IMG/VR virus record: IMGVR_UViG_3300028886_000036
Location: 211,467 to 275,466 of that record
Length of the DNA: 64,000 nt
Source of the DNA: a virus
Taxonomy: Duplodnaviria; Caudoviricetes
Strand: one strand, 5' to 3'
The notes below the pieces were generated by a model. The model was not told the DNA's origin. It saw only the letters and a list, made by a program, of their open reading frames with translations, and ran no database searches. Positions within the stretch are counted from its first letter, which is position 1, and every line of letters starts with the position of its first letter. This document shows, piece after piece, positions 4,332 through 29,697 of the stretch. A program made the translations under genes and the position numbers.

Positions 4332-4409
4332 CGGGTATTAGCGCAGTCTGGTTAGCGTATCTGCTTTGGGAGCAGAGGGTCGAAGGTTCAAATCCTTCAT
4401 ACCCGACCA
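4332..4409 (+). tRNA. tRNA-Pro(TGG)
   Basis: Acceptor CGGGTAT/ATACCCG, anticodon arm TCTGC-TTTGGGA-GCAGA, GGTTCAAATCC T-arm, CCA. Confidence 0.95.
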
Positions 4410-6191: not shown

Positions 6192-6986
6192 CTACTTACA
6201 ATATTTTTCGCAGAACGCGTTGTATCCAGTCTCGTTGTTAGTGTATACGTCGATCTTGTGCTTCTCATCAGCACGATCTGTGTGGAACCCAGACGTATCA
6301 ACAAAAGTCGCAACGTCACTGGTGTGGAAAGCAATGAGCTTTGAACCCATGTCGATTCCAGCGAACCCGTTCTTTAACTTGATAACTGGATACTTCTTTA
6401 CAGAAGCATCCACTCTCGTGTCAAAGTACTTAACACCCTTTAGTGCTTTTGGCTCAGTCGGAATAAGCTTTTTTGCGTCCGGAGAATCAACAAGAATCGC
6501 CAAAGAACCTTTCTGATACATGTTAGGAAGCTTTATAAGCTTTTCCATACCCTCAAACGACGCTGACGAATAAACATACTCGTTTACGACATCGTTGATA
6601 AACTGGTACAGATGCTCTGTATCCGGTTCTTTAGGAAGCCTTTCGCCCTCCACCATCATCTTGGTAATGATATACCTTCCATTAGTGGGATTAAAACCAC
6701 CAATGCCAAGGATGTGATATACGGCTCCGTGGTGCGCCAGAGGAGCTTCTTTGGAGAAAAAGCTTCGAAGGATGCAGACGAACTTGAACTCCTGAAACAA
6801 CGCTCCATACGGCATGATGCACTCGGTAACGCGCTTCACCTTGAACTGCACTGCCTCCCCTGCAAAGACTTTAGTACTTAAAGTCTTTCCATCCGAGTCT
6901 TCGATTTCACACGACACGGGGAAGTCTTGGGTATAGATATACTTCACCCACCAATTGTTGCTGCGCTCGTTGTTATTGTCGGTCAT
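6192..6986 (-). CDS. hypothetical protein (cassette gene, visibly higher GC)
   Basis: AAGGAGGT SD before the ATG at 6986; promoter motif at 7045. Confidence 0.8.
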   Translation of the reverse strand: MTDNNNERSNNWWVKYIYTQDFPVSCEIEDSDGKTLSTKVFAGEAVQFKVKRVTECIMPYGALFQEFKFVCILRSFFSKEAPLAHHGAVYHILGIGGFNPTNGRYIITKMMVEGERLPKEPDTEHLYQFINDVVNEYVYSSASFEGMEKLIKLPNMYQKGSLAILVDSPDAKKLIPTEPKALKGVKYFDTRVDASVKKYPVIKLKNGFAGIDMGSKLIAFHTSDVATFVDTSGFHTDRADEKHKIDVYTNNETGYNAFCEKYCK

Positions 6987-7044
6987 TTTTATGACCTCCT
7001 TATTGAGATTAAGTCCTGTGATAGAAACAGAACTCACAATAATA

Positions 7045-7054
7045 ATATATATAC
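7045..7054 (-). promoter_or_regulatory. conserved phage promoter-like motif TRTAWRTATATW (first of 20 copies)
   Basis: Plus-strand ATATAY(A/T/G)TAY at 7045, 8281, 12280, 12671, 14574, 18747, 25714, 30453, 30862, 31232, 31385, 32017, 32306, 33045, 33807, 34411, 34879, 36664, 41069 and 55075, each just upstream of a minus-strand unit. Confidence 0.75.
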
Positions 7055-7119
7055 AAATTTTGAGATAGACTTAAAAATAAAAAGAGCCCCACAATTAAGT
7101 GGGACTCTTATATAGAACA

Positions 7120-8226
7120 TTAGTCATCAAACACAACATCTTTGTTGTAAACTAATTTCATCAACTTCTTAAAAGACGGCTTAGTATGCAGGAACCTGAA
7201 GAATGGATGAGCATCGTCTGCTAAAGTTCTATCAAGAATTCCGTCTCTGACAAACCAATCATAGTCATCCATTCGAAAAACCCAAAACGCATGATAGTAC
7301 TGGTCAGGCCAGTACACCAAAACCCAACCTGTTTCAGTATCTAACGCAGTAGCTAACGGTGGGTTCTTCAGGAGCTCGTTAGATTTTGAAGTGATGTTTT
7401 CGCTTAGAATAATACCGGAAACCTCAAGCTTCCCAAACAACTTAATATATTCAGTTGATGGAGAAGCACTAGTGTACTGATTAATAGTACCAGCATGTTT
7501 TCCAGTAGACTCATACGTAGTCGTTTTTATTTCTACAATGGGCCGATTTTTCTTTTCAGAAATTTCCTTCTCTTCTTTGTCATAAAGTATAGGCCAATCA
7601 AGGTTAGAAAGAAAGAACTCGAAATTTTTGTACCTATACTTAGAAGAGTAAAATTTCTTAGGATTGATCTGATATTGCTCTCTATCAGGCATATTTTGAA
7701 CTTCCCGATCAAGATAGATTAGCTCGTTCCCTACAGTCTCCAAAAGAGACATGAAATAATGCCCACTGTTGCTATCTTCCAACGCAATTCTTTCAAACAT
7801 TTCTCCATTTGTACTAACTCGTACTAATTTATAGCATCCATCAGATACATCATAATGGAGTAGTATATCGTTGACATACTTAGCGCATAACATAGGTACG
7901 TCTTTTTCAGGCCATTTTCTGCGATATGCATGTTTTATTGTCAACCTGATAACAACGTTTCCGGGGTTATTCCCACGTACAAGTCGTGTAGGCCAAATAC
8001 GAATAAGTTGACCTTCACGAACTTCTTCCATTCCGATAGGAATGCCTAATTTTTTATCGAAGACCATAGCCGGGCCATATGGAATTCTGCCAAACTCATA
8101 TTTAACAAGTAAGCAATTCTCCCATAATGGTGACCATCCCCATGTACTTTGCGACTCAAGTCTATTCTCTCGGGTAAAAATTCTACCCCCGAGATCCTGT
8201 TCTTTTCTCGCCCAATAATATAACAT
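7120..8226 (-). CDS. hypothetical protein (cassette gene)
   Basis: 368-aa ORF; promoter motif at 8281; terminator at about 7083-7108. Confidence 0.8.
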   Translation of the reverse strand: MLYYWARKEQDLGGRIFTRENRLESQSTWGWSPLWENCLLVKYEFGRIPYGPAMVFDKKLGIPIGMEEVREGQLIRIWPTRLVRGNNPGNVVIRLTIKHAYRRKWPEKDVPMLCAKYVNDILLHYDVSDGCYKLVRVSTNGEMFERIALEDSNSGHYFMSLLETVGNELIYLDREVQNMPDREQYQINPKKFYSSKYRYKNFEFFLSNLDWPILYDKEEKEISEKKNRPIVEIKTTTYESTGKHAGTINQYTSASPSTEYIKLFGKLEVSGIILSENITSKSNELLKNPPLATALDTETGWVLVYWPDQYYHAFWVFRMDDYDWFVRDGILDRTLADDAHPFFRFLHTKPSFKKLMKLVYNKDVVFDD

Positions 8227-8301
8227 GGTATTACCGCCTTTCGTAAAATTAGCCCTGTAGATACAGAACTTATTAACATTATATACTTACAAATTTTAGA
8301 C

Positions 8302-8330
8302 TTGACAAATAGTGTAATGTCTATTATAAT
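8302..8330 (+). promoter_or_regulatory. sigma-A/70-type promoter
   Basis: TTGACA-N17-TATAAT. Confidence 0.8.
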
Positions 8331-8650
8331 TACAGTATCTTAATGAAGGGGTTGATCATAGCATGATTAACAAAGACTTTATTTCTAAGTATCCTTTTGA
8401 TATACCAGGTATTGTTTATAAGAAAGATTATTGGGACGATAACTATGAATATGAAGAAGATGATGATGAAGATAAAGACAGTTGGATGTCTCTATAATTA
8501 GTTTAAGGAGGATTATAATATGTCTAGATTTACAGCTGAAAGTTTTGAGGATATGCTACATAGTATTCATTATATCTCTAGAACTCTTGAAAGAATTGAA
8601 AAGTTGCTTGTAGATATTGATGAAAAGATTAATAGGAAGGAGTCTTAATT

Positions 8651-8920
8651 ATGCCAATGAAGAATCATTTTGATTATATGGTACATGACGCAGTATATAG
8701 ACCTTATGAATCCCCAATGCCATTTACTGAAGGTCTTTATATGGATATTAAGGATTATATTGAATCCTTAGAAAGACGTATTGAAGAACTTGAAAAGAAA
8801 GTTGAAGAAAGTAATAATAAAAGTAATGTTCATATTACTATTGATACACCAGAGATTAATAGTCCGAGAGTTTGGTGGGATACTAAATCACCATATACTA
8901 TTAACTCACCAACTTGTTAA
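8651..8920 (+). CDS. hypothetical protein
   Basis: AAGGAG SD; short coiled-coil-like segment. Confidence 0.65.
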   Translation: MPMKNHFDYMVHDAVYRPYESPMPFTEGLYMDIKDYIESLERRIEELEKKVEESNNKSNVHITIDTPEINSPRVWWDTKSPYTINSPTC

Positions 8921-8935
8921 GAAGGAGGAATTATA

Positions 8936-9163
8936 ATGAGTTTAGGTGTTATTCTTGTAATAGCTATATGCATTGCAACTTTATTTAGTTGTATTGCTGA
9001 TATAATGTTTGACATTAAGTTAATTAATTCTAATATAGATGCTTTGGAAAAGAACTTCTATGATAGAATGTTTCAAACTGAGAACAAATTTAGACAGCTA
9101 GATACTAAATATAGTCTCAGTAGTATTAGATTTAAAAAACTAGAAAAGGAGATTGATAAGTAA
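8936..9163 (+). CDS. small membrane-anchored protein
   Basis: AGGAGG SD; N-terminal hydrophobic helix. Confidence 0.65.
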   Translation: MSLGVILVIAICIATLFSCIADIMFDIKLINSNIDALEKNFYDRMFQTENKFRQLDTKYSLSSIRFKKLEKEIDK

Positions 9164-17372: not shown

Positions 17373-17450
17373 GGCCCTGTAGTTCAACTGGATGAACAAC
17401 TGACTTCTAATCAGTAGGTTATGGGTGTTCGAGCCACCTCAGGGTCGCCA
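17373..17450 (+). tRNA. tRNA-Arg(TCT)
   Basis: Acceptor GGCCCTG/CAGGGTC, anticodon arm ACTGA-CTTCTAA-TCAGT, T-arm GGGTG-TTCGAGC-CACCT, CCA. Confidence 0.9.
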
Positions 17451-18758: not shown

Positions 18759-18787
18759 TTGACATCCTAATTAATCTATGCTATAAT
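18759..18787 (+). promoter_or_regulatory. sigma-A/70-type promoter of the polymerase N-gene
   Basis: TTGACA-N17-TATAAT with extended TG. Confidence 0.8.
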
Positions 18788-18816
18788 CATCTTAACCTTA
18801 AAGTAGGAGGAGAAAA

Positions 18817-21417
18817 ATGGCATCACCATTAACTACCTATATTAAATGGCTATCTATCCCGGAAGATATTCCATTTCCAGAAGAATGTAAGTCATTAAAT
18901 ATTAAAACTATTTTGAATCTAGCAGAAGAAGATCTATTTGCTGGATTGATGATGAATCAGCTGTTCAATGACGCATATGCTTATAATTATAGCATTGAAG
19001 ATATTGCTAGACTTCATAAGAAACATAATAGTACTTATAAGTTTAATTATATTAAGCAAGTTCCTAAACTTCCTGAACCAGTTAAAAAAGAAGAGGTTAA
19101 GGAAGTCGTAGTGCATAAGAAAACTAAATATAAAAGACCTAAAGAAAAACCAGGTATTACAGAAGAAATCAACCCTGAAGAGAATCCAATGCTGGTTAAT
19201 GTCTATTATGATGGGGATAATAGACAAGTTGCTTATGTAACCAGAGTTGATAGGAAAAGGTATATTGAGATAGTCGATGACAATGTTATGATGTATTATG
19301 GTAAAGATGATTATCTTAATGTTAGTGATGCTGCTAGATTGAAAAGTGAATTGGTTTCTTATAGATACCGTAATAAAACTATTGAAAAGCATAAAGAAGA
19401 ACATCCTTATGATGCAATCTATAATGTAGATCTTAATATTGCTATTCCTAAAACAGTATCTTGGAAAGAGAATCATCCTAATGCTGGTACTTATAAATTA
19501 AGGATTAACTATATTGATATTGAGTTGTATCAGGAAGGTTATGGAGTAATTGACTTCTCTGATTTGAAAACTTCAGCTAGATTAATTCCAGTTAACTTGA
19601 TTACTATTTATGATAATTATGATGATAAATATTACACTTTGATTTACAATTTGAACCGGTCAGAAATTAAACCTGAACAAATTAAAGGATATTTAGACTA
19701 TAAAGATGAATGTAATTTTGATGTAAGAATTTTTGATAAAGAAACTGATTTGTTTTTGGAGTTCTTTAGATTGCTAAAAGAATTTGATCCAGATCTAGTA
19801 TCTGGATGGAATAGTGACGAGTTTGACTTACCCTATATCAAATATAGAGCTGAATTTCTTGGTATTAAGAATCCTAAATTGGCTCATAATAAAGTGTTTG
19901 GTATTGAATATAAGACTCTTACCAATAAGCACAATGAAGAAATTACTTATTGTATTCCTAAACTTGGCTATTCGGTTGCTTTGGATTATCAAAGATGTTA
20001 TAAAGAGAGAGCTTTTGGTAAAAGAGAAAACTATAAGCTTGGTACTATTTCACAATATGAACTTGGTATTACTAAACTTGATACTGAAGATGGTATGGAT
20101 AAGATCTTTAGAGAAGAACCTGAACGTTTTATTGCATACAATATTAACGACGTTCATCTGGTTAGAAAGCTTGATGAAAAACTGAAGTATATCGATTTGT
20201 GCTTTAATATTATCCAGTTCGCTAATATTTCTTGGGATAGTGTTTATACCACACTTCATATTGTTGATGGCATTCTTTATGAGTATTTGATTAAGCAATC
20301 TAAAGTAATGAAGATTGTTAATAGAGATGTTGAAAAACAACCTTTCATGGGCGCATATGTGAGAAAACCAATTAGTGGAGTACATGATTGGTTAGGTGAT
20401 TTGGATCTTACATCTCTGTATCCTTATATTATGGCTAGATATAATATTAGTGCAGATACTTATGTTGGAAAACTTGATTTTGAAGATAGTAAAGAATACA
20501 TTTATAACAAGGAAGGCTTTATTAATAGTAACAAGAAGATTAATCTATATCTTAGAGTAGATGGCATTGAAAAAAGATATGAGATTAGTACTAAAGGCTT
20601 CCATGATAAAATGATTAAGAATAAGTACATCATTACTTATACTGGTACTATCTTTAAAAGGCATGAAGATAAGTTGTCTGTTTTGTATGAAATTATTCAG
20701 ATGCTTATTTCTAAACGTAAAGAGTATAAGGATCTGATGAAAGATAATATTGGCGTAAATGATATGCTGGTTGATAGATATAATGGAATGCAGATGACTG
20801 TTAAAGTTATTACTAACTCTTTGTATGGAGCTCAGTCTAATAATAGATTTAGAATGTATGATTATGAAGTAGCTAGATCTATTACTACTACTGGTAGAGA
20901 AATTGCTAAAGTAGCTGCTGTAGTTGCCAATGATCTGATTAATCAAATGATTAGAAATAAGAGTGGCAAATTTAACAGTGTTGAGATTCCTTATGATTGG
21001 GAAGAAAAATCTGATGATATTCTTAGCAATGTTGTATATGGAGATTCAGTTACTGGAGACAGTTTGATTAGAACTGGTATTGGTAATATTCCAGTTAAGG
21101 ATATTTGGGAGACTCAAATGAAAGCCTATCCTGAATTGTCTAAAACTGGTGAGATTAACACTGGTTATGTTCAAATGAATGGCAAGGAGTATATCCTGAA
21201 TCCTAATATAACAATACTTGGAGTAGACGACAGTTTATATATCCCAAGATACATTATGAAACATAAAGTTAAAAAGAAACTGTATAAAATTACAACTGAA
21301 TCTGGTAAGTCAGTTACTGTTACAGAAGATCATAGTCTTATTGTTTATAGAAACAATGAGAAGCTGGTTATTAAGCCAACAGAATTGATTGACACAGATA
21401 AAGTGATTGTGATATAA
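18817..21417 (+). CDS. polB: family-B DNA polymerase, N-terminal part (3'-5' exonuclease, motifs A and B) fused to split intein N-fragment
   Basis: DIE (ExoI), GWNSDEFDLPY (ExoII), YNINDV (ExoIII), DLTSLYP (motif A), KVITNSLYG (motif B); ends YGD followed by intein sequence. Confidence 0.95.
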   Translation: MASPLTTYIKWLSIPEDIPFPEECKSLNIKTILNLAEEDLFAGLMMNQLFNDAYAYNYSIEDIARLHKKHNSTYKFNYIKQVPKLPEPVKKEEVKEVVVHKKTKYKRPKEKPGITEEINPEENPMLVNVYYDGDNRQVAYVTRVDRKRYIEIVDDNVMMYYGKDDYLNVSDAARLKSELVSYRYRNKTIEKHKEEHPYDAIYNVDLNIAIPKTVSWKENHPNAGTYKLRINYIDIELYQEGYGVIDFSDLKTSARLIPVNLITIYDNYDDKYYTLIYNLNRSEIKPEQIKGYLDYKDECNFDVRIFDKETDLFLEFFRLLKEFDPDLVSGWNSDEFDLPYIKYRAEFLGIKNPKLAHNKVFGIEYKTLTNKHNEEITYCIPKLGYSVALDYQRCYKERAFGKRENYKLGTISQYELGITKLDTEDGMDKIFREEPERFIAYNINDVHLVRKLDEKLKYIDLCFNIIQFANISWDSVYTTLHIVDGILYEYLIKQSKVMKIVNRDVEKQPFMGAYVRKPISGVHDWLGDLDLTSLYPYIMARYNISADTYVGKLDFEDSKEYIYNKEGFINSNKKINLYLRVDGIEKRYEISTKGFHDKMIKNKYIITYTGTIFKRHEDKLSVLYEIIQMLISKRKEYKDLMKDNIGVNDMLVDRYNGMQMTVKVITNSLYGAQSNNRFRMYDYEVARSITTTGREIAKVAAVVANDLINQMIRNKSGKFNSVEIPYDWEEKSDDILSNVVYGDSVTGDSLIRTGIGNIPVKDIWETQMKAYPELSKTGEINTGYVQMNGKEYILNPNITILGVDDSLYIPRYIMKHKVKKKLYKITTESGKSVTVTEDHSLIVYRNNEKLVIKPTELIDTDKVIVI
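21046..21414 (+). other. split intein N-fragment, 123 aa, Ser1
   Basis: Block A SVTGDSLI directly after YGD; block B VTVTEDHSL (TxxH); a stop codon follows, with no endonuclease domain. Confidence 0.92.
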
Positions 21418-21431
21418 TTTAATAGAAGGAG

Positions 21432-22007
21432 ATGTTGTTTTATATGAGTGATAGAAATATAGTCGATTTTAATGGCTTACAGACATATGATAATAATATT
21501 AAAAGATATATTAGTGAAGTTGGTAATACAAACTATGCACCAATGTCACATACGCATTATCTTGGAGATATAGGTTTCACTCCAGATAATGGTACTATTC
21601 CAAACGATGATGTTTATAGGTTGAAAGGATTTAGAAACTGTCAAATCTTTGTCAATTACGATAGCGATAATATTAATATTGATACTGATAAATATGACTT
21701 AGCTTATATTAATGTTTCTAGAGATATTAACATTACTTTAAGAATCGGAGCTACCGAAGGTGTGTCTCCCAAGAGTCATGCTAGATGCTTAAAGATTATT
21801 TTAAATAATGCCTATAATCATAATATTACTTGGAACTATAGTAGTAATTTTATTTGGAGAGATAATGATGTTACTTTCTCTGATGAAGCAAATAAGGTTG
21901 ATATTGTCGAACTTATTACTGCTGGATTAGATGCTAATGGAGAAGTAGCAGAAATTAATCCTACTAGTAATGTTATTTGGTATGGTAATATTTCTAAATC
22001 ATATTAA
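21432..22007 (+). CDS. hypothetical protein, possibly virion-associated
   Basis: 191-aa ORF with a YAPxSHTH motif reminiscent of fibre proteins. Confidence 0.6.
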   Translation: MLFYMSDRNIVDFNGLQTYDNNIKRYISEVGNTNYAPMSHTHYLGDIGFTPDNGTIPNDDVYRLKGFRNCQIFVNYDSDNINIDTDKYDLAYINVSRDINITLRIGATEGVSPKSHARCLKIILNNAYNHNITWNYSSNFIWRDNDVTFSDEANKVDIVELITAGLDANGEVAEINPTSNVIWYGNISKSY

Positions 22008-22027
22008 TGAAAGGGATTGATTAACAA

Positions 22028-22303
22028 ATGGGAGTTAAACAAGTTTTTACAAAAAAAGAGGCTAGAGAGATTTGTAGAAGACTCGGGCTTTCTGAAATAG
22101 CTTTGAGTAATGATACTTGTATTGTTGCTCAGAATGATAAGGGTCATATCTATAAGTTTCCTATCGGAGTTCCTGGCAAGGTAGAAGTTACTAATAAGCC
22201 AGTTGTGAATGCTGTTAAGGAAGAAAAGGTAGAACCTGAGAAGCCAGTTAAAAGAAAGCGTGGTCGTCCACCTAAGAAAAAGAAAGTGGAGGAAACAGAA
22301 TAA
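22028..22303 (+). CDS. small AT-hook protein
   Basis: KRKRGRPPKKKK near the C-terminus. Confidence 0.65.
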   Translation: MGVKQVFTKKEAREICRRLGLSEIALSNDTCIVAQNDKGHIYKFPIGVPGKVEVTNKPVVNAVKEEKVEPEKPVKRKRGRPPKKKKVEETE

Positions 22304-22320
22304 GAAAGGACTGATTCTTA

Positions 22321-22899
22321 TTGAATTCAGTATCTAAGAATATATTAGATTTACTTAAAGTTATTGCACAGAATCAGATGCAATTAGCTAAAAAAGTAGA
22401 TGAGATGAACAATAAGCTTCAGGAGTTTTTTGATGAAGCCACTACTGAACCTCCAGTAGATTTAGAAGAATTTAGTATAGAACCTGAAAGAAATCCTCCT
22501 GTTAAAAAGAAAAAGATTGACAGTAAAATGTTTGATGAATTTGTTCTTCAAGAAAAAGAAAGAAGAACACCGAAGGGACAAGCTACTCAGGTTAAAAAGA
22601 AAACTAAAGTTACAGCAAATCCTGGCATTAATGCTAATAAGATAAGGATTATAAATGGAAGTGATGGCTCTGACATTTCAGATGAAAGTACTGTAGTTTC
22701 AGCTGATATTGATTCAATTAAACCAACTGATTCTGCTAAAGAAAAATTGAGAAAGCTAGGTATGCCACTTCCTTCATTATCTAATGCTGCTCCTGAATTA
22801 GCAGATATTGAAAAGGCAAAGATTTTAGAGGCAGAAATTGCTAGAGAACAAAAGAAAGCTGATTTAAAGAAACCTAAAGAAGAAGTAAAAGAAAAATAA
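22321..22899 (+). CDS. hypothetical charged protein
   Basis: 192-aa ORF, GAAAGGA SD, TTG start. Confidence 0.7.
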   Translation: MNSVSKNILDLLKVIAQNQMQLAKKVDEMNNKLQEFFDEATTEPPVDLEEFSIEPERNPPVKKKKIDSKMFDEFVLQEKERRTPKGQATQVKKKTKVTANPGINANKIRIINGSDGSDISDESTVVSADIDSIKPTDSAKEKLRKLGMPLPSLSNAAPELADIEKAKILEAEIAREQKKADLKKPKEEVKEK

Positions 22900-23004
22900 G
22901 GAAGTGTTATTTTGAAATTGGTATTGGAACACTATGCTATGTTTATATGCATTTGGTGTGCTGAATATATGATTGCAAATCTTATTTAGAAAGGGAGTAT
23001 TTTA

Positions 23005-23331
23005 GTGGCAACTAAAGTTTTAACAGATACTGGTCATTTTGATATAATGGATTATACTGTTACTAAGTTTTATGGTAAAGATATTTATAAGCCTTATAAA
23101 GAGTATGGTGTTAAAGCATATTTCGAGGCATTGAAAGAAGCTATTAAAGGCATTGCTTCGCCGCCTTCATATATTTTGGTATTTGATAATAAAAAGTATA
23201 CCTGCAAGCTGTTTGTTAATCAGAAAGAAGTTAAACCAAAGAATCCCGGTGAGCTTCAGAAGAAGATTGATAAATATAAAAGGATGAAGTTTAAAGAGAA
23301 TACCAAGGAGGATAATAGTAATGAAGGTTAG
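23005..23331 (+). CDS. hypothetical protein
   Basis: GGGAG SD, GTG start. Confidence 0.65.
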   Translation: MATKVLTDTGHFDIMDYTVTKFYGKDIYKPYKEYGVKAYFEALKEAIKGIASPPSYILVFDNKKYTCKLFVNQKEVKPKNPGELQKKIDKYKRMKFKENTKEDNSNEG

Positions 23332-23992
23332 ACTTATTGCCGAAACTAATAACCCAGAATATGTTGTTACATTGGCTGCGGCTACTTGTTATAGTGATAA
23401 AGAATACACTGAGCTTTATGATAAGTGTAACGATAAAAAGTATCAGGAGACCCTTATTACTAAACTTCTTTCTAGTGGGCATGAAAGTCCTTTTGAGCAT
23501 GCTTGTTTTACATTCTTTATTGAAGGAGTATCTAGATCTATGACTCACCAATTGGTAAGACATAGGATTGCATCATATTCCCAGCGATCTCAGAGATATA
23601 CTAAAATGAAACCTTCAGAATTTAATATCCCAGAGAGTATTAGTTCTGATCCAGAAAAGAAGAAAGCTTTTGAAGAACATCTTAAAGATACATTCCAGCT
23701 CTATGATGAATTGATTGCTGGTGGAGTTCCTAAAGAAGATGCTAGAGAGATTCTTCCTAATGCAACTCAAACTACTATTGTAATGACTATGAATCTTAGA
23801 GAGCTTAGACACTTTATGGAATTGAGAATGTGTAATAGAGCTTCTACAGAAATTAGAGCAGTTGCTGATGAGGTTTATTCTATTCTTAAAATGTATCATC
23901 CTTTACTGGTTATCGGTGCAGGACCCAAATGCTGGTATGGTAAATGCACTGAAGAACATAAAACTAAAGATTGCCCTAAAAAGAAAATTTAA
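23321..23992 (+). CDS. thyX: FAD-dependent thymidylate synthase
   Basis: GHESPFEH, HQLVRHRIASYSQRSQRY (RHRx7S), KEDAREILP, NLRELRHF. Confidence 0.97.
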   Translation: MKVRLIAETNNPEYVVTLAAATCYSDKEYTELYDKCNDKKYQETLITKLLSSGHESPFEHACFTFFIEGVSRSMTHQLVRHRIASYSQRSQRYTKMKPSEFNIPESISSDPEKKKAFEEHLKDTFQLYDELIAGGVPKEDAREILPNATQTTIVMTMNLRELRHFMELRMCNRASTEIRAVADEVYSILKMYHPLLVIGAGPKCWYGKCTEEHKTKDCPKKKI

Positions 23993-24000
23993 TAAACAAA

Positions 24001-24036
24001 AAGAAACTACCGTAGTGATACGGTAGTTTCTTTTTT
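24001..24036. terminator. bidirectional intrinsic terminator
   Basis: AAGAAACTACCGT/ACGGTAGTTTCTT between convergent genes. Confidence 0.8.
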
Positions 24037-24038
24037 AA

Positions 24039-24476
24039 TTATGAGTTCACATGGATAAATCCAAGTAAGTCGCCAATATTAAATTCATTTAAGATAGCTA
24101 ACGCCTTATCATAGAGATCCTTTTTTATTTTTTCATAGTCAAACTTAACTTGACTCTTAATGAATGCTTGATTAGGATCTTTCAAAATAGTTGAATAGAA
24201 CAAAGATGACATTAGATCTTTAAAGCTATAGAAAACTTGGTAACAACCATCTTCTCTAATAAATAGATAGATGTCATAGTATCTATTAACTACAGCCTCC
24301 CAAGGTACCTGCCCATATTTAAAGGTAATACCGTTTGTTAAACAGTATTCTTTAAACAGGTCAAGTGACACAAACTGAAGTACTTTAACTTTTTCAGGAA
24401 TAAACGCCTTAGCATCCTGGAGTTTTTCAATCTTCATCCAAAGATTATAGTAATAATTCTGCTCTACAGTTTCCAT
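24039..24476 (-). CDS. hypothetical protein
   Basis: GGAGG SD; last gene of a minus-strand operon. Confidence 0.7.
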   Translation of the reverse strand: METVEQNYYYNLWMKIEKLQDAKAFIPEKVKVLQFVSLDLFKEYCLTNGITFKYGQVPWEAVVNRYYDIYLFIREDGCYQVFYSFKDLMSSLFYSTILKDPNQAFIKSQVKFDYEKIKKDLYDKALAILNEFNIGDLLGFIHVNS

Positions 24477-24487
24477 TAAAATTCCTC

Positions 24488-24799
24488 CTAATCAATATTA
24501 GATGGTCTATCTCCACACATCTTTATAAAGGTATGTGCTATCTCACAAATATCATACTTATCGTCATCTTTAACAAACTTATTATTGTGATATGTACAAC
24601 TATAACAGTCGTTACAAATAAAATCTTTAAGCATAGTTAATCCCAAGGTTCTAATAAATTTTGCTTTGCCAGCACATACTTCATCAACTGTATGATCATG
24701 ACTAGCATTTATAGGACAGCGGCTATTACATTTAGTATAAGACAAACATCTATTTGTAAATTGTATACTATAGTATAATACTACTGCAAAATGATTCAT
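24488..24799 (-). CDS. Cys-rich small protein (two-repeat family member)
   Basis: Two Cx(n)CxxCx(n)C-like clusters. Confidence 0.7.
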   Translation of the reverse strand: MNHFAVVLYYSIQFTNRCLSYTKCNSRCPINASHDHTVDEVCAGKAKFIRTLGLTMLKDFICNDCYSCTYHNNKFVKDDDKYDICEIAHTFIKMCGDRPSNID

Positions 24800-25008
24800 T
24801 CTTTATCCTCAAAAGACATATCCATAAAATATTCATCTTCATTGTCAGTACAGACTGCTATAGCGCCCTGATGAAGATATCCTAAAATCGCCATAAGATT
24901 ATTAACATCATTCTCGTCAATTCGTATTTCAATAGGAGTATACTCTTTGAACACAAATTTTATAGTTTTCATACCGTTCCTCCATATCTCAACTTTTTTA
25001 TAATACAC
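24796..25008 (-). CDS. small hypothetical protein
   Basis: Coupled to both neighbours. Confidence 0.6.
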   Translation of the reverse strand: MYYKKVEIWRNGMKTIKFVFKEYTPIEIRIDENDVNNLMAILGYLHQGAIAVCTDNEDEYFMDMSFEDKE

Positions 25009-25303
25009 CGTTACCTTTCATTTCAGAATATTTTACTGCTAATATATTAGTAGAACACGATCCTCTCCCTTCCCATATTACATGTTGTTTGTATTCACAA
25101 GATATACAATTTTTATGTTGTGAACAAAATCCCCTGGCAGTTACAATAATCTTATTACTGTCATGAAATTTAGAAGATACTGATACATATCTATATAATG
25201 TGCAACAATCTCCCTTTGATTTATACCGACAACTATTGCAGCATACTTGAGTCATACAATAATTTATTAAAACAATATTTGTAGCGAGATCTAATTTTCT
25301 CAT
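24998..25303 (-). CDS. Cys-rich small protein (two-repeat family member)
   Basis: YCMTQVCCNSC..C and FCSQHKNCISC..C. Confidence 0.7.
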   Translation of the reverse strand: MRKLDLATNIVLINYCMTQVCCNSCRYKSKGDCCTLYRYVSVSSKFHDSNKIIVTARGFCSQHKNCISCEYKQHVIWEGRGSCSTNILAVKYSEMKGNGVL

Positions 25304-25354
25304 AATTTCACCTCTTATTATACCACAAACACATCTAATTGCTAAAGCACTTAT

Positions 25355-25669
25355 TTACTTCAATTTCATCCCTTTGAGAAGTACATATCTTAAAGCAGTA
25401 ATACTAGCAGCACAATATTCCTCCTTGCCTCCGGTAGCTAATATACAGTCATACTTACAACATCCAGAACTACTATCACAAATCTCTAGTAGTTTTGATA
25501 TAATATTCTCATCAAACACCTCTTTAGCTCCATCTAATGCCCATCTAGTTATATTACACACTTGAGGTTCATTCTCATCTAAAAACTTACATTTATAACA
25601 ATACTCAACCCCCATACAATAATTAGCCAAGCATATATTTAGTACCAAATCATATCTTACACGCTTCAT
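25355..25669 (-). CDS. Cys-rich small protein (two-repeat family member)
   Basis: YCMGVEYCYKC..C and ICDSSSGCCKYDC..C; paralog of 24998-25303. Confidence 0.7.
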   Translation of the reverse strand: MKRVRYDLVLNICLANYCMGVEYCYKCKFLDENEPQVCNITRWALDGAKEVFDENIISKLLEICDSSSGCCKYDCILATGGKEEYCAASITALRYVLLKGMKLK

Positions 25670-25733
25670 AAGACCACCTCTTCTAAAATATAAACTAAAT
25701 GAACAGTGTAATAATATACTTATAAATTTTTAC

Positions 25734-25761
25734 TTGACAAGATGAAATAATCGTGTATAAT
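25734..25761 (+). promoter_or_regulatory. sigma-A/70-type promoter of the polymerase C-gene
   Basis: TTGACA-N16-TATAAT, followed by a GAGGTG SD. Confidence 0.8.
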
Positions 25762-25783
25762 AACAGTGTGAGGTGAGAAAAAG

Positions 25784-25903
25784 ATGAAGCTTGAACGGAT
25801 TAAATCAGTTGAAGTTATAGACCCAAATTATGATGTAGATGTTTATGACTTTGAACTGCCAGTCGAACATAACTTCTTTGCTAATGATATTCTAGTGCAT
25901 AAT
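25784..25903 (+). other. split intein C-fragment, 40 aa, +1 residue Thr
   Basis: Block F VYDFEL..HNFFAN and block G ILVHN|T. Confidence 0.93.
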
Positions 25904-26773
25904 ACTGATTCAATCTTTACCAAGTATGGAGATGCATTAAAAGCTATCTATGGAGATGAATATGATGATATCTCCGATACTGATAAGATTAGTAAAGTTA
26001 TTGAATTGAATGAGTCTGTAGCACAGTACATTAACAATGTAATGATACCAGATTTGCTAGAAAAACACAATACCTCTGCTACAGAATCTAGTGCTAAGAA
26101 GTTTAACTTTAACTTTAAACAGGAACTAGTTATTAGAAAAGCATTGTTTATTGAAGCTAAAAAGAAGTATGCAACTTGGCTGGTTTCAAAAGAAGGTAAA
26201 CCTCTTGATAAGATTAATATTACTGGTCTAGAAATTGTTAGATCTGATTTCCCGAAATTTAGTAGGGATATGATGAGAAATGTAGTTAATGATATTCTGA
26301 AAAAGGGTATCACTAAAGAAGATCTAATTATTATGTTATCTCAGTATAAAGATCAGTATATGGAACTACTTCAAACTGGATCTACAGATGCTGCTATACC
26401 TAGTTCTTGGAATAAAGAGAACTATGCTAGTGTACCTAGAGCTGTTAAATCGATGTTAATCTACAATGCTATCTATGGCAATACATTTAAGATACTGGAT
26501 AGAGGTTATAGATTTGACTTGGAAAATATTAATATAAGTCAGTTTGATGAGACAGTTAGAAAACGCTTGACAGATTTAGTTGAGAGTGGTAAAATGGGAA
26601 AAGAAGGTAAGTTGGATTGCATCACTATCCCATCAGGTAGTGTATTAGATACAAGTAAGTTTACCATTGATTACAACAAGATGGTTGGATTTGCAATCGA
26701 TGATAGACTGAAAAATTTCTGTGAGATATTTGGTATCAGTATTGAGGATCCTGATGCAATAAGTTGGATCTAA
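25784..26773 (+). CDS. polB: split intein C-fragment fused to family-B DNA polymerase C-terminal part
   Basis: Intein ends HN, then TDSIF (completing motif C, YGDTDS), KKKYA and ITGLEIVRSD. Confidence 0.95.
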   Translation: MKLERIKSVEVIDPNYDVDVYDFELPVEHNFFANDILVHNTDSIFTKYGDALKAIYGDEYDDISDTDKISKVIELNESVAQYINNVMIPDLLEKHNTSATESSAKKFNFNFKQELVIRKALFIEAKKKYATWLVSKEGKPLDKINITGLEIVRSDFPKFSRDMMRNVVNDILKKGITKEDLIIMLSQYKDQYMELLQTGSTDAAIPSSWNKENYASVPRAVKSMLIYNAIYGNTFKILDRGYRFDLENINISQFDETVRKRLTDLVESGKMGKEGKLDCITIPSGSVLDTSKFTIDYNKMVGFAIDDRLKNFCEIFGISIEDPDAISWI

Positions 26774-27489: not shown

Positions 27490-27512
27490 TTATATTAAGG
27501 AGATTGATAACT

Positions 27513-27959
27513 ATGTCGTGTCAGTTTAATCGTGTTATTATTGCGGGAAATCTTGGTTCTGATCCTTTCTACAAACAGCGTGATGATGGTCGTGATTTCT
27601 GCACTTTCCGACTTTTTGTTAATAGGACTTTCTTTATGAGAGATCCTGCTACTGGAGAAGTTGTTAAGAAGGAATCTGTTGATAGCCCTGTTATTCAGTG
27701 CTGGGGTAAGAATGCTGAACGCATGGGTAAGTACCTTACCAAAGGTCGTAACGTTCTGATTGAAGGCCATATTGAGACTCATCAGTGGCAGGATAAGAAT
27801 GACCCAAATGTGATGCATAATGAAACTGTTGTTATGGCTGACGACTTCAAGTTTATCGATAAGCCTCGTTCTGCTGAAGCTACCCCTAAAGCCTATACTA
27901 AAGAAGATACTCCAGTTGATAACACCGGAGATGTTGATACTGTAGCAGTTGACATTTAA
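27513..27959 (+). CDS. ssb: single-stranded DNA-binding protein
   Basis: FNRVIIAGNLGSDP, CWGKNAE, KGRNVLIEG and an acidic tail. Confidence 0.92.
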   Translation: MSCQFNRVIIAGNLGSDPFYKQRDDGRDFCTFRLFVNRTFFMRDPATGEVVKKESVDSPVIQCWGKNAERMGKYLTKGRNVLIEGHIETHQWQDKNDPNVMHNETVVMADDFKFIDKPRSAEATPKAYTKEDTPVDNTGDVDTVAVDI

Positions 27960-28026
27960 CTAAAAAGCTGGTATAATTCTTATAGCACAATATAAGAGCT
28001 ATACCAGCTCTTTTTATATCTCTAGA

Positions 28027-29697
28027 TTGGGAGTGGTAATTATGGATAATATTTTGGGAGAACTTAGACAGATTCTGGATAATAATAGAGAGTTTATGGG
28101 TAGTGAATTTTTGTCAGTGTATTCTAGATTGGTATTTGGTAAAAAGACTGATCCTACAGTATTGAAGTCAGCATCATATCTCTGTAAAGAATTTAAATAT
28201 TTTATTGAGAGAGTAAAAGATAAACAGAATACTATTGGAGTTACTCTTATTACTTTGGATTCTTTACAGCAGAAGATGTTACAGTATGTTAGTAAGAGTT
28301 TTAATAATAAAAGTAAAGTAATTGATGGAGATGTAGCTCTAGAGAAATATAAGAATTTTATTAATAACGATGTATCAATCAGTTATGAAGATAAGCAGAA
28401 AGCATTAAGTATTACCACTCAAGAAGATCTTCAGTTGGATGTAGTGAATGAAATCCAAACTAGTTTTTCTAATAAGAAATGTATGTTCAATTCATTAGGT
28501 CAGTATGAGATACTTAAGACTTTTATTAATAGTGGTTATAATGAATGTGAAAACTGGGGAGAATTTGTAGATAAGTTTCATAAGTTGTTAGGTACAGCAC
28601 TTTTGGATGTACAAGCTTATACTTATGATGCGGCTAATTCATTAGATCTATCTAGTATGACTATTGAAGATGTAGTTAATAATAATAATCAAGTCACCAA
28701 GATTAGTACTGGGTATAATATGTTTGATAAAGTACTTCAGGGTGGTTTTCAGAATCAAAGAGTGTATATGTTTGGTGGTATTTCTGGTGGTGGTAAATCT
28801 CTAGTATTGGTTAATTTTGCATTTAGAGCGAAGTTGTTTTTGGATAAGAAATATCCAAAAGAAGAAAGATCTAAACATACTGTATTGTATATTTCATTAG
28901 AGAATAGCACTAAAGAAACTGGTGATAGATTTATTTGTTGTGCATTGGGTCAATCTATTGCTCAAATTGAAAATGGGTTTAGTAGTTTGAAAGATCAGTA
29001 TAACTACAGCATTAAAGAAGTATTTAATCCAGATAATGCTAGAATCAATATCACATATAGACCAGCTAAAAGTATCGATATCTATGATATCCAAACTATT
29101 ATTACCGATATTGAAAGAAGTACAAAAAGTAAAGTAGATATTTTGTTTGTGGATTATGCAGATAAAATGTCTGCAGTGAATGCGTCTAAATCAGATCAAG
29201 AATGGAGAGATCTTGGTTATATTGTTGATGAATTGAAATCATTATCTATTTCATTGGATATCCCGGTAGTTACAGTTACACAGCTTAATAGAGAAACTTA
29301 TAAGGGGAAAGGCAAAGGTAATGAGTTCAGTATTAATGGTGGTAATATCTCTGGTTCAATTAGAAAAAGAGAGAATGTTGACTTCTTTACTATCTTCAAC
29401 TTCAAAGCCAAAGAAGAAGAAGAAATCAGTATGAATGATAATCCTGATGAAGTCTTTGATGATAGAAAAGATGTTATGAAACCAATTGAACCAGTATATT
29501 GTATAGTTGATAAAAACAGAATGGGCCCAGATAATCTGAAGTTCCAAGTATATATTGATTATCCAACTTACAGAATGCTTAATTACCCAAGTGAGAATAT
29601 TAGTACTAGTTTCTATCATAATGGCAGTATTGAAAAAGTTATGATTGATGAAGATGAAAGTAAGCTTGATGAAAAATTAAGAGATACAATGCTTTAA
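28027..29697 (+). CDS. replicative SF4 helicase (DnaB/gp41-like)
   Basis: GISGGGKS, YISLEN, FVDYAD, VTVTQLNR and DKNRMG. Confidence 0.9.
   Translation: MGVVIMDNILGELRQILDNNREFMGSEFLSVYSRLVFGKKTDPTVLKSASYLCKEFKYFIERVKDKQNTIGVTLITLDSLQQKMLQYVSKSFNNKSKVIDGDVALEKYKNFINNDVSISYEDKQKALSITTQEDLQLDVVNEIQTSFSNKKCMFNSLGQYEILKTFINSGYNECENWGEFVDKFHKLLGTALLDVQAYTYDAANSLDLSSMTIEDVVNNNNQVTKISTGYNMFDKVLQGGFQNQRVYMFGGISGGGKSLVLVNFAFRAKLFLDKKYPKEERSKHTVLYISLENSTKETGDRFICCALGQSIAQIENGFSSLKDQYNYSIKEVFNPDNARINITYRPAKSIDIYDIQTIITDIERSTKSKVDILFVDYADKMSAVNASKSDQEWRDLGYIVDELKSLSISLDIPVVTVTQLNRETYKGKGKGNEFSINGGNISGSIRKRENVDFFTIFNFKAKEEEEISMNDNPDEVFDDRKDVMKPIEPVYCIVDKNRMGPDNLKFQVYIDYPTYRMLNYPSENISTSFYHNGSIEKVMIDEDESKLDEKLRDTML

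Follow-up and report, generated by a model that had tools for sequence, protein, structure and literature searches.

Split inteins that lack cysteine are wanted, where they are efficient, for protein ligation in oxidising conditions and beside thiol chemistry. The prototype of the natural cysteine-less split inteins is that of Aes123 PolB1, from T4-like phages of Aeromonas, whose wild type splices to about 30% and which serves as an example of the poor in vitro splicing of many natural split inteins (PMC11923092). Only two efficient, orthogonal cysteine-less split inteins are at hand, CLm and LCGC14 (PMC12707363). CL and CLm were engineered from the Aes123 intein, whose characterised relatives are those of CP21 PolB1, LCGC14 PolB2 and GOM-OPS-1 PolB2. 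Of the possible pairs of nucleophiles, Ser1 together with Thr+1 is the least reactive. The only characterised natural split example of this Ser1/Thr+1 pair, in the family-B polymerase of Nanoarchaeum equitans (Neq Pol), works only at 50 °C or above (PMC11766414).

Here we describe a locus in a 64,000-nucleotide stretch of viral DNA, called the window below, in which a jumbo phage carries its family-B DNA polymerase in two separate genes (Table 1). Our main reading, to which we assign a probability of about 0.85, is that a functional, naturally split class 1 intein assembles the only family-B polymerase of this phage by protein trans-splicing. An earlier, sequence-only reading had proposed a Ser1/Thr+1 intein without cysteine, split in nature, which needs trans-splicing to rebuild the motif YGDTDS, and this proposal holds on all tests at the level of sequence; its split-intein coordinates and junction sequences were all confirmed to the base.

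Table 1. Features of the split polymerase locus, in positions of the window.
Feature	Position	Strand	Description
Promoter, gene 1	18759..18787	+	perfect sigma-70 consensus, TTGACA-N17-TATAAT, 30 nt 5' of ATG
Shine-Dalgarno, gene 1	about 18806-18811		AGGAGG
Gene 1	18817-21417		866 aa
N-extein	18817..21045	+	743 aa; PolB N-terminal region, 3'-5' exonuclease, palm/fingers
IntN	21046..21417	+	123 aa (21046-21414) plus stop (21415-21417); no Cys
Ser1 codon (IntN)	21046-21048	+	catalytic
NX His73 codon (IntN)	21262-21264	+	catalytic
Block B His96 codon (IntN)	21331-21333	+	catalytic
Promoter inside last IntN codons	21389..21418	+	perfect sigma-70 consensus
Five gap genes	21432..23992	+	four hypothetical and ThyX (Pfam, PHROGs)
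Hypothetical gap genes	21432-22007, 22028-22303, 22321-22899, 23005-23331	+	
ThyX thymidylate synthase	23321-23992	+	Pfam and PHROGs
Hairpin terminator	23998..24035		17-bp stem, between convergent + and - gap blocks
Five small genes of unknown function	24039..25669	-	three Cys-rich, two of those three paralogues
Promoter, gene 2	25734..25761	+	perfect sigma-70 consensus, TTGACA-N16-TATAAT, 23 nt 5' of ATG
Gene 2	25784-26773		329 aa
IntC	25784..25903	+	40 aa; block F VYDFELPVEHNFFAN, block G DILVHN; terminal Asn40 codon 25901-25903
Thr+1 codon	25904-25906		opens TDS
C-extein	25904..26773	+	289 aa plus stop; rest of palm, then thumb

The two exteins together have the make-up of a family-B polymerase, and in the predicted spliced product the exonuclease, motifs A, B and C and the KKxY motif are colinear. 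Matches to PF03104 and PF00136 in Pfam cover both halves. The N-extein holds motif A as DLTSLYP and motif B as KVITNSLYG and ends on the first half of motif C (YGD), and this N half of the polymerase aligns with residues 366-609 of RB69 gp43, stopping just short of motif C. The second half of motif C, the TDS that begins with Thr+1, opens the C-extein and is followed by a KKKYA motif and the thumb; the matches of the C-extein in the PDB search were weak PolB matches and served only for locating the KKxY motif.

Between the two halves lie 4.4 kb with ten ordinary genes. Searches of all ten ORFs against Pfam and PHROGs matched only ThyX and no homing endonuclease, and among the Atlas look-alikes of the first gap ORF after IntN, which are tail-fibre-like, none is a nuclease; a degenerate nuclease within the gap is possible. 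Diverged relatives (64-73% identity) keep the split, with gaps of 4.1 and 7.8 kb; the five + strand genes after IntN are syntenic in the relatives L003 and L006, and the minus-strand block differs from relative to relative. The gap of L006 contains a CoiA-like protein and TnpB, both absent from the window, and a 269-aa ORF just 5' of IntC in L003 had no family match. Each polymerase half has a promoter of its own, and that of gene 2 is packed together with the Shine-Dalgarno sequence GAGGTGAG and the ATG within 25734-25786. Perfect sigma-70 matches number eight in the window, against a chance expectation of 0.21, and all are on the + strand; the one inside the last IntN codons is positioned so as to drive the + strand genes of the gap.

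Both intein fragments pass curated cut-offs for a class 1 intein (Hint domain), IntN with 45.5 bits on NCBIfam TIGR01445 (cut-off 24.5) and IntC with 24.1 bits on TIGR01443 (cut-off 15.6); PF14890 scores lie just under the Pfam gathering threshold. The best PDB match of IntN is 9HTH, the Aes123 PolB1 intein (E 6.7e-11), and so is that of IntC (E 5e-5). Gene 1 runs through ...VVYGD into SVTGDSLI...TEDHSL...KVIVI and its stop, and IntC ends on ILVHN before the TDSIF of the C-extein, so that the class 1 residues (Ser1, the TEDH of block B, the HN end and Thr+1) are all present. They are also invariant: across 42 diverged homologues aligned to IntN the invariant columns are Ser1, the NX His, T-x-D-H-S of block B and one Pro, and across 43 homologues of IntC they are Y-D of block F, L-V-H-N and then T-D-S. 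Taken together, these intein features are far beyond what would be expected by chance. The NX motif is defined as a His preceded by Lys or Arg (PMC10189870), and it appears here as YIMK-H73, upstream of block B; the extra His that had been picked out in YIMKHK was thus read correctly, with the Lys before it that the motif requires.

No cysteine occurs at position 1, at +1 or anywhere else in the 123-aa and 40-aa fragments. Cysteine-less inteins had been called rare, which is true among characterised inteins but not in sequence data, where 19 of 42 DTD/S and 7 of 11 YGD/S split N-fragments are free of Cys (best 150 cluster representatives; a slash marks the insertion point). Within the phage's own clade, L003 has one Cys in IntC, and L006 has two in IntN and one in IntC; we therefore do not regard the lack of cysteine as an adaptive trait that is conserved in this group, the closest clades having 1-3 non-catalytic Cys. 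The acidity of IntC, also remarked on before, stands (9 D/E vs 3 K/R); over its final 60 aa IntN counts 12 K/R vs 7 D/E. The charge polarity is nevertheless not special, and its supposed uniqueness is rejected, for Aes123, CP21 and PTm1 share the acidic IntC and the basic N2 lobe of IntN (also PMC11923092).

The insertion site, YGD/TDS with Thr+1, lies two residues upstream of that of all biochemically characterised phage members (DTD/S, Ser+1), and the junction DTD/S...HN/S is found in Aes123, CP21, PTm1, PA5oct and CC_R7. The sequence-only reading had overlooked this shift. A parsing error as the source of this offset was ruled out, the N-extein ending in YGD without TD and the C-extein starting with TDS. 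There are 16 metagenomic PolBs that carry inteins at the two sites in tandem, which makes YGD/TDS and DTD/S distinct alleles. In the intein tree they form largely separate groups (8 label changes, versus about 59 with shuffled labels), and the window's intein falls within a clade wholly of the YGD/TDS site. The split YGD/S form was seen in 57 of 81 homologues of the N half, while in 51 of the 99 homologues of the C half an IntC of about 40 aa comes first and TDS next; public data hold dozens of split YGD/S...HN/TDS polymerases, many with Cys-free fragments. Judged by these likenesses, the element is not new in kind but a homologue within a large, already known family of phage PolB split inteins, and is therefore a useful addition. 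Novelty relative to known inteins, which the sequence-only reading had left to a database search, is limited accordingly: the Aes123 PolB1 / CL / CLm intein, to which this one is homologous, is in use already.

We also modelled the complex of IntN and IntC from our own alignments. It scored 0.79, with 0.01 for the best of three controls, and it passed a mark that is reached by 58 of 80 solved complexes and by 2 of 110 mismatched pairs; contacts agreed between runs to at least 90%, and the pLDDT of the partner was at least 74. The modelled interface takes in Ser1 and its neighbours and the IntC residues as far as Thr+1. Since like complexes have been solved (e.g. 9HTH), this pass may reflect memory of likeness instead of binding by this copy, and it is in the model only that the two fragments are predicted to associate.

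Three other accounts of the locus deserve attention. Since the IMG/VR record behind the window derives from a metagenome, one may suspect that the polymerase gene is really contiguous, with or without a cis-intein, and that the 4.4-kb gap is a chimeric join; we give this almost no weight. At least four other assemblies from different samples show the same split (ENA ERZ27256887, a 275-kb contig, and ERZ27280252; Logan SRR9008756 and ERR3224573), as do two diverged lineages whose gap genes are syntenic. Moreover, IntN has its stop at the canonical split site, IntC has a Shine-Dalgarno sequence and an ATG behind a consensus promoter, and dozens of database proteins have like starts or ends. With separate genes that have their own stop and start retained across independent assemblies and diverged relatives, the intein is naturally split, and the split is not an assembly artefact. 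Hardly less improbable is a decaying locus, in which the polymerase would be a disrupted pseudogene pair and another polymerase would replicate the genome, jumbo phages sometimes carrying redundant replication genes. The 275-kb genome, however, has one PolB and no second; both halves are open over their full length, retain the exonuclease, A, B, C and KKxY motifs intact and are conserved in relatives at 67-73% identity; and an SSB and a DnaB-like helicase directly downstream set the polymerase halves within a replication module.

The account that comes closest to competing, though we still think it unlikely, is that the intein halves splice no longer and serve only to dimerise the protein without a covalent bond, or that the two parts of the polymerase are active as a heterodimer. 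Intein-less split PolBs of that sort have been described from some T4-like phages and from Methanothermobacter (PMC2677866). The oxyester chemistry of a Ser1/Thr+1 pair, too, is slow by nature. Yet an unexcised Hint domain of 163 aa would split the catalytic site inside motif C, and Ser1, the NX His, T..H of block B, YD of block F, the His-Asn pair and Thr+1 are invariant down to homologues of about 36-40% identity. Such invariance of catalytic residues argues that catalysis is under selection, as the pattern is expected only then.

Under the preferred reading of protein trans-splicing, the basic C-terminal lobe of IntN would capture the acidic IntC, and the pair would fold into the Hint horseshoe. 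Ser1 would then undergo an N-O acyl shift with help from the NX His73 and the block-B His96, and attack by Thr+1 would give a branched oxyester. With the help of the penultimate His, Asn40 would cyclise, and through an O-N shift a polymerase of 1032 aa with YGDTDS intact would result. Since the motif-A Asp is in half 1, and the second motif-C Asp and KKxY are in half 2, activity should need both halves; most likely it would need splicing too. The intein belongs to the large Ser1 family of phage PolB inteins, of which Aes123 PolB1 is a member, but occupies the adjacent allele site, YGD/TDS with Thr+1 instead of DTD/S with Ser+1. An intervening homing endonuclease would have been lost from the locus or never have been there, ordinary genes accumulating in its place, and the locus would represent the 'uncoupled halves' stage of the gene-breaking model of Dassa and Pietrokovski.

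If this is right, the sole replicative polymerase of a jumbo phage depends on the post-translational ligation of two separately transcribed halves, and a polymerase gene can stay split with no homing endonuclease present, even as genes of other kinds build up between its halves. Splicing by this intein, its rate and its temperature range are what we infer from sequence. A literature search on the sample accessions for habitat or temperature found no papers, and the label 'mesophilic' is not established for the intein. It is conceivable, although we rather doubt it, that the window holds a fully Cys-free, non-thermophilic Ser1/Thr+1 natural split intein of the biochemically uncharacterised YGD/TDS allele. 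Were that so, efficient splicing at ambient temperature, orthogonal to CLm and LCGC14 (both Ser+1, DTD/S), might be within its reach, and the locus would document, in a phage, an endonuclease-free stage of uncoupled halves that are separately promoted. The intein is Cys-free without engineering, and its Thr+1 would leave a Thr scar instead of Ser. Its allele is sister to characterised ones, so that it may reasonably be included in a screen; public data contain many more of its kind.

Among known systems, the Aes123 PolB1 intein comes nearest, with a homologous Hint domain and the closest solved structure (9HTH); intein identity is 38.5% to Aes123, 40.5% to CP21 and 43% to PTm1. Aes123 is likewise found in motif C of a phage PolB and is split at the position of endonuclease insertion, into 120 + 39 aa compared with 123 + 40 aa here (PMC11923092), the break between IntN and IntC falling at one and the same point in both. 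The two also share Ser1, the NX K/R-H, the TxxH of block B, the HN end and the absence of Cys, but the window's intein does not occupy the same site and has Thr+1 in place of Ser+1. Between the halves of Aes123, PTm1 and PA5oct stands a gene for a homing endonuclease, VSR-like or Hef-like, whereas the window has ten unrelated genes at that place and no detected nuclease. Cyanobacterial DnaE (Npu/Ssp) is likewise a replicative polymerase trans-spliced from two unlinked genes, with charge-driven association, but it differs in its Cys1/Cys+1 chemistry, its polymerase family and its charge polarity, which is opposite to that of the window's intein. Neq Pol resembles the locus in being a natural split of a family-B polymerase with Ser1/Thr+1 oxyester chemistry, no cysteine and halves at separate loci without an endonuclease (PMC11766414, PMC10189870, PMC2677866). 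Unlike the window's intein it is archaeal and hyperthermophilic (50-100 °C), with shorter fragments of 98 + 30 aa, and the PDB search with IntN and IntC at E<=1 did not bring it up as a relative in sequence. The 'fractured genes' of Dassa et al. 2009 are likewise phage replication genes broken by a split intein, with both halves on one strand, near each other, and separated by a homing endonuclease that is free-standing; here, by contrast, no such endonuclease was found, and the halves are separated by 4.4 kb that include a five-gene block on the opposite strand, with a promoter for each half. The locus fits steps III-IV of the gene-breaking model, the loss of the endonuclease and the uncoupling of the halves (PMC2677866).

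The source record, 275,466 bp long with a CheckV completeness of 100% and ending with the 64-kb window, belongs to a jumbo phage with a GC content of about 32%, and no second family-B DNA polymerase (PolB) was found in the whole genome besides the split pair. Gene 1, the N half, reads through ...VVYGD into a 123-aa tail that runs from SVTGDSLI to KVIVI-stop (IntN), while gene 2, the C half, opens with 40 residues closing in ILVHN (IntC), followed by TDSIF. Against RB69 gp43, the N half aligned to residues 366-609, covering motifs A and B and ending just short of motif C; the second Asp of motif C lies in the C half, together with KKKYA. Since the catalytic motifs of the only PolB are divided over the two halves, replication should depend on both and, as the sequence reads, most likely on their ligation beyond their mere presence. 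Directly downstream of the C half come genes for an SSB and a DnaB-like helicase, which places the split polymerase within a replication module. The window also carries four tRNA genes, all reading A/T-ending codons, as fits a low-GC genome.

Coordinates of features in the window and in related records
Feature	Position	Strand	Description
Perfect sigma-70 consensus promoters	4547, 8302, 12697, 15924, 18759, 21389, 25734, 27949	+	TTGACA-N16-18-TATAAT match
Gene 1	18817-21417	+	866 aa; family-B exonuclease and polymerase domains (PF03104, PF00136)
Gene 2	25784-26773	+	329 aa; remainder of PF00136 after TDSIF
SSB and DnaB-like helicase	27504-29697		
tRNA genes	53-217, 4332-4409, 17373-17450		Leu-TAA, Ile-TAT, Pro-TGG, Arg-TCT
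Cys-rich paralogues	24998-25303, 25355-25669	-	101 and 104 aa
Intein-like element	G000:C1:187202-188230	-	whole virus record; 762-aa open frame
Gap of related phage L006	IMGVR_UViG_3300028886_000034, 6453-9109		CoiA-N-domain protein (369 aa) and TnpB / Cas12f-like protein (494 aa)
PolB C-terminal piece of L013 and neighbouring gene	LR756508.1, 8083-9957 and 11333-12742		uncultured 484-kb phage

The sequence-only reading had taken the gene 1 tail and the gene 2 head for a naturally split, cysteine-free intein acting in trans, and both its coordinates and the absence of Cys from both fragments held on re-checking. IntN scored 45.5 bits against NCBIfam intein_Nterm (cut-off 24.5), and IntC scored 24.1 bits against intein_Cterm (cut-off 15.6). 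Across 42 aligned homologous N-fragments the invariant positions are Ser1, Val2, the NX-motif His (next after a Lys or Arg), block-B T-x-D-H-S and a Pro, and across 43 C-fragments they are block-F Y-D, L-V-H-N and the extein T-D-S; this pattern is that of a catalytically active class-1 intein with predicted oxyester chemistry (PMC10189870). A model of the IntN-IntC complex scored 0.79 against 0.01 for the best of three controls, with at least 90% contact agreement between runs and a partner pLDDT of at least 74; at the mark used for such models, 58 of 80 solved complexes pass, as do 2 of 110 mismatched pairs. The model supports association of the fragments, although, like complexes having been solved, it speaks for likeness and is not proof of binding by this copy.

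From the anatomy of the parts, trans-splicing is the most likely route to a working polymerase. IntN, which carries a KHKVKKK patch and counts 12 K/R to 7 D/E over its last 60 residues, would capture the acidic IntC (9:3 acidic to basic) with its basic C-terminal lobe, as described for Aes (PMC11923092); the Hint fold would then form, and Ser1, Thr+1 and Asn40 would complete a four-step splicing reaction, yielding a polymerase of 1032 aa in which YGDTDS is whole again. The charge polarity had been read correctly from the sequence, but it is the norm of this intein family rather than a special feature.

The split might instead have been created during assembly from halves that are contiguous in the phage, and three lines argue against such an artefact: the position of the break, the signals preceding each half, and independent recovery. 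Both the IntN stop and the IntC start coincide with the canonical site of endonuclease insertion, which is also where Aes123 divides into its fragments (120 + 39 aa). A perfect sigma-70 site precedes the ATG of each gene, by 30 nt for gene 1 and 23 nt for gene 2, and in both cases a strong Shine-Dalgarno sequence comes after it. The same arrangement was recovered in a 274,968-bp ENA contig and in a Logan contig of a different run, in ENA and Logan contigs from a relative at 98% identity, and in two diverged IMG/VR lineages (67-73% identity), whose halves are 4.1 and 7.8 kb apart and in both of which the first five gap genes are syntenic.

Perfect consensus promoters number eight in the window, all on the + strand, against 0.21 expected by chance, which suggests a class of host-RNAP promoters, perhaps early, and both polymerase halves would be transcribed from this same host-type class. 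Another of these sites, inside the last IntN codons, is predicted to drive the + strand part of the 4.4-kb gap (four hypothetical genes and ThyX), which is followed by a hairpin terminator and then by five small minus-strand genes. Two adjacent Cys-rich paralogues (28% identity, E 2e-8), for which no family match was found, fall in the variable part of the gap. In L006, a diverged relative, the gap has gained a CoiA-N-domain protein and a TnpB / Cas12f-like IS605 OrfB protein (494 aa), which marks the gap as variable and as a place where mobile elements have landed. Family searches of the gap ORFs detected no nuclease family. In the 'fractured gene' arrangement that Dassa et al. described, a free-standing endonuclease separates the halves (PMC2677866); the gap here matches steps III-IV, later stages of their model in which the endonuclease is lost and the halves are uncoupled.

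Among the best 81 homologues of the N half, 57 have the split YGD/S form (slash at the insertion point), on contigs of up to 332 kb, and among 99 homologues of the C half, 51 open with an IntC some 40 aa long and then TDS; IntN matches at E<=1e-3 fall into 858 clusters (50% identity clustering). The YGD/TDS split allele is therefore abundant in sequence data. Cys-free N-fragments are common among IntN homologues. The clades closest to this phage do not conserve the trait, which therefore seems incidental and not an adaptation. The sequence-only reading was largely right about the predicted trans-splicing intein but over-valued it; its remaining value is modest.

Some 23 kb ahead of the window lies another, contiguous intein-like element, at 17.6 bits for intein_Cterm (above cut-off) and a weak 16.4 bits for intein_Nterm. 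The PolB of L013 is apparently in several pieces, its C-terminal piece holding a seeming cis intein (Y-T-D/SC...VVHN/TDS) and a neighbouring gene another intein-like junction (...VCHN/TS).

Among solved structures, both fragments match 9HTH best (IntN E 6.7e-11; IntC E 5e-5), the Aes123 PolB1 intein, which is the prototype among mesophilic cysteine-less natural split inteins and the source of the engineered CL and CLm tools (PMC11923092, PMC10189870). Whole-intein identities of 38.5% to Aes123, 40.5% to CP21, 43% to Tenacibaculum phage PTm1 and 36% to Pseudomonas phage PA5oct lie within the published spread of 32-52% relative to Aes (PMC12707363), and hence inside the known family; several such relatives are already in GenBank as 'intein-containing split DNA polymerase precursor'. 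These four and the contiguous Campylobacter phage CC_R7 intein, however, read Y-x-DTD/S...HN/S with Ser+1, two residues downstream of the site here, which reads YGD/S...HN/TDS with Thr+1. Both sites are occupied in tandem (...VHN-TD-SV..., with a two-residue extein between the inteins) in 16 metagenomic PolBs, so YGD/TDS and DTD/S are distinct alleles. In these proteins, which lie outside the window (P0165, P0183-P0185, P0188, P0191, P0192, P0194, P0196, P0198, P0199, P0201, P0202, P0216, P0248, P0255), a cis-intein at YGD/...HN/ is followed by TD only and then by a second, often split, intein (SV...), interrupting DTDS twice. The intein tree needs 8 site-label changes against about 59 for shuffled labels, and places this intein in a well-supported clade made up entirely of the upstream site. 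Aes123 and PTm1 have a VSR-like endonuclease between their halves and PA5oct a Hef-like one, whereas here the halves are separated without a detected endonuclease, each with its own promoter. Characterised cysteine-less split inteins in the surveyed literature are Ser+1 at the downstream site (PMC12707363), with two exceptions, the atypically split PolB16 and the hyperthermophilic Neq Pol, Ser1/Thr+1 (PMC11766414); the intein here is a phage-derived, naturally split Ser1/Thr+1 one, fully free of Cys and at an allele that is apparently not yet characterised, and could plausibly be developed into one more orthogonal tool for cysteine-less ligation.
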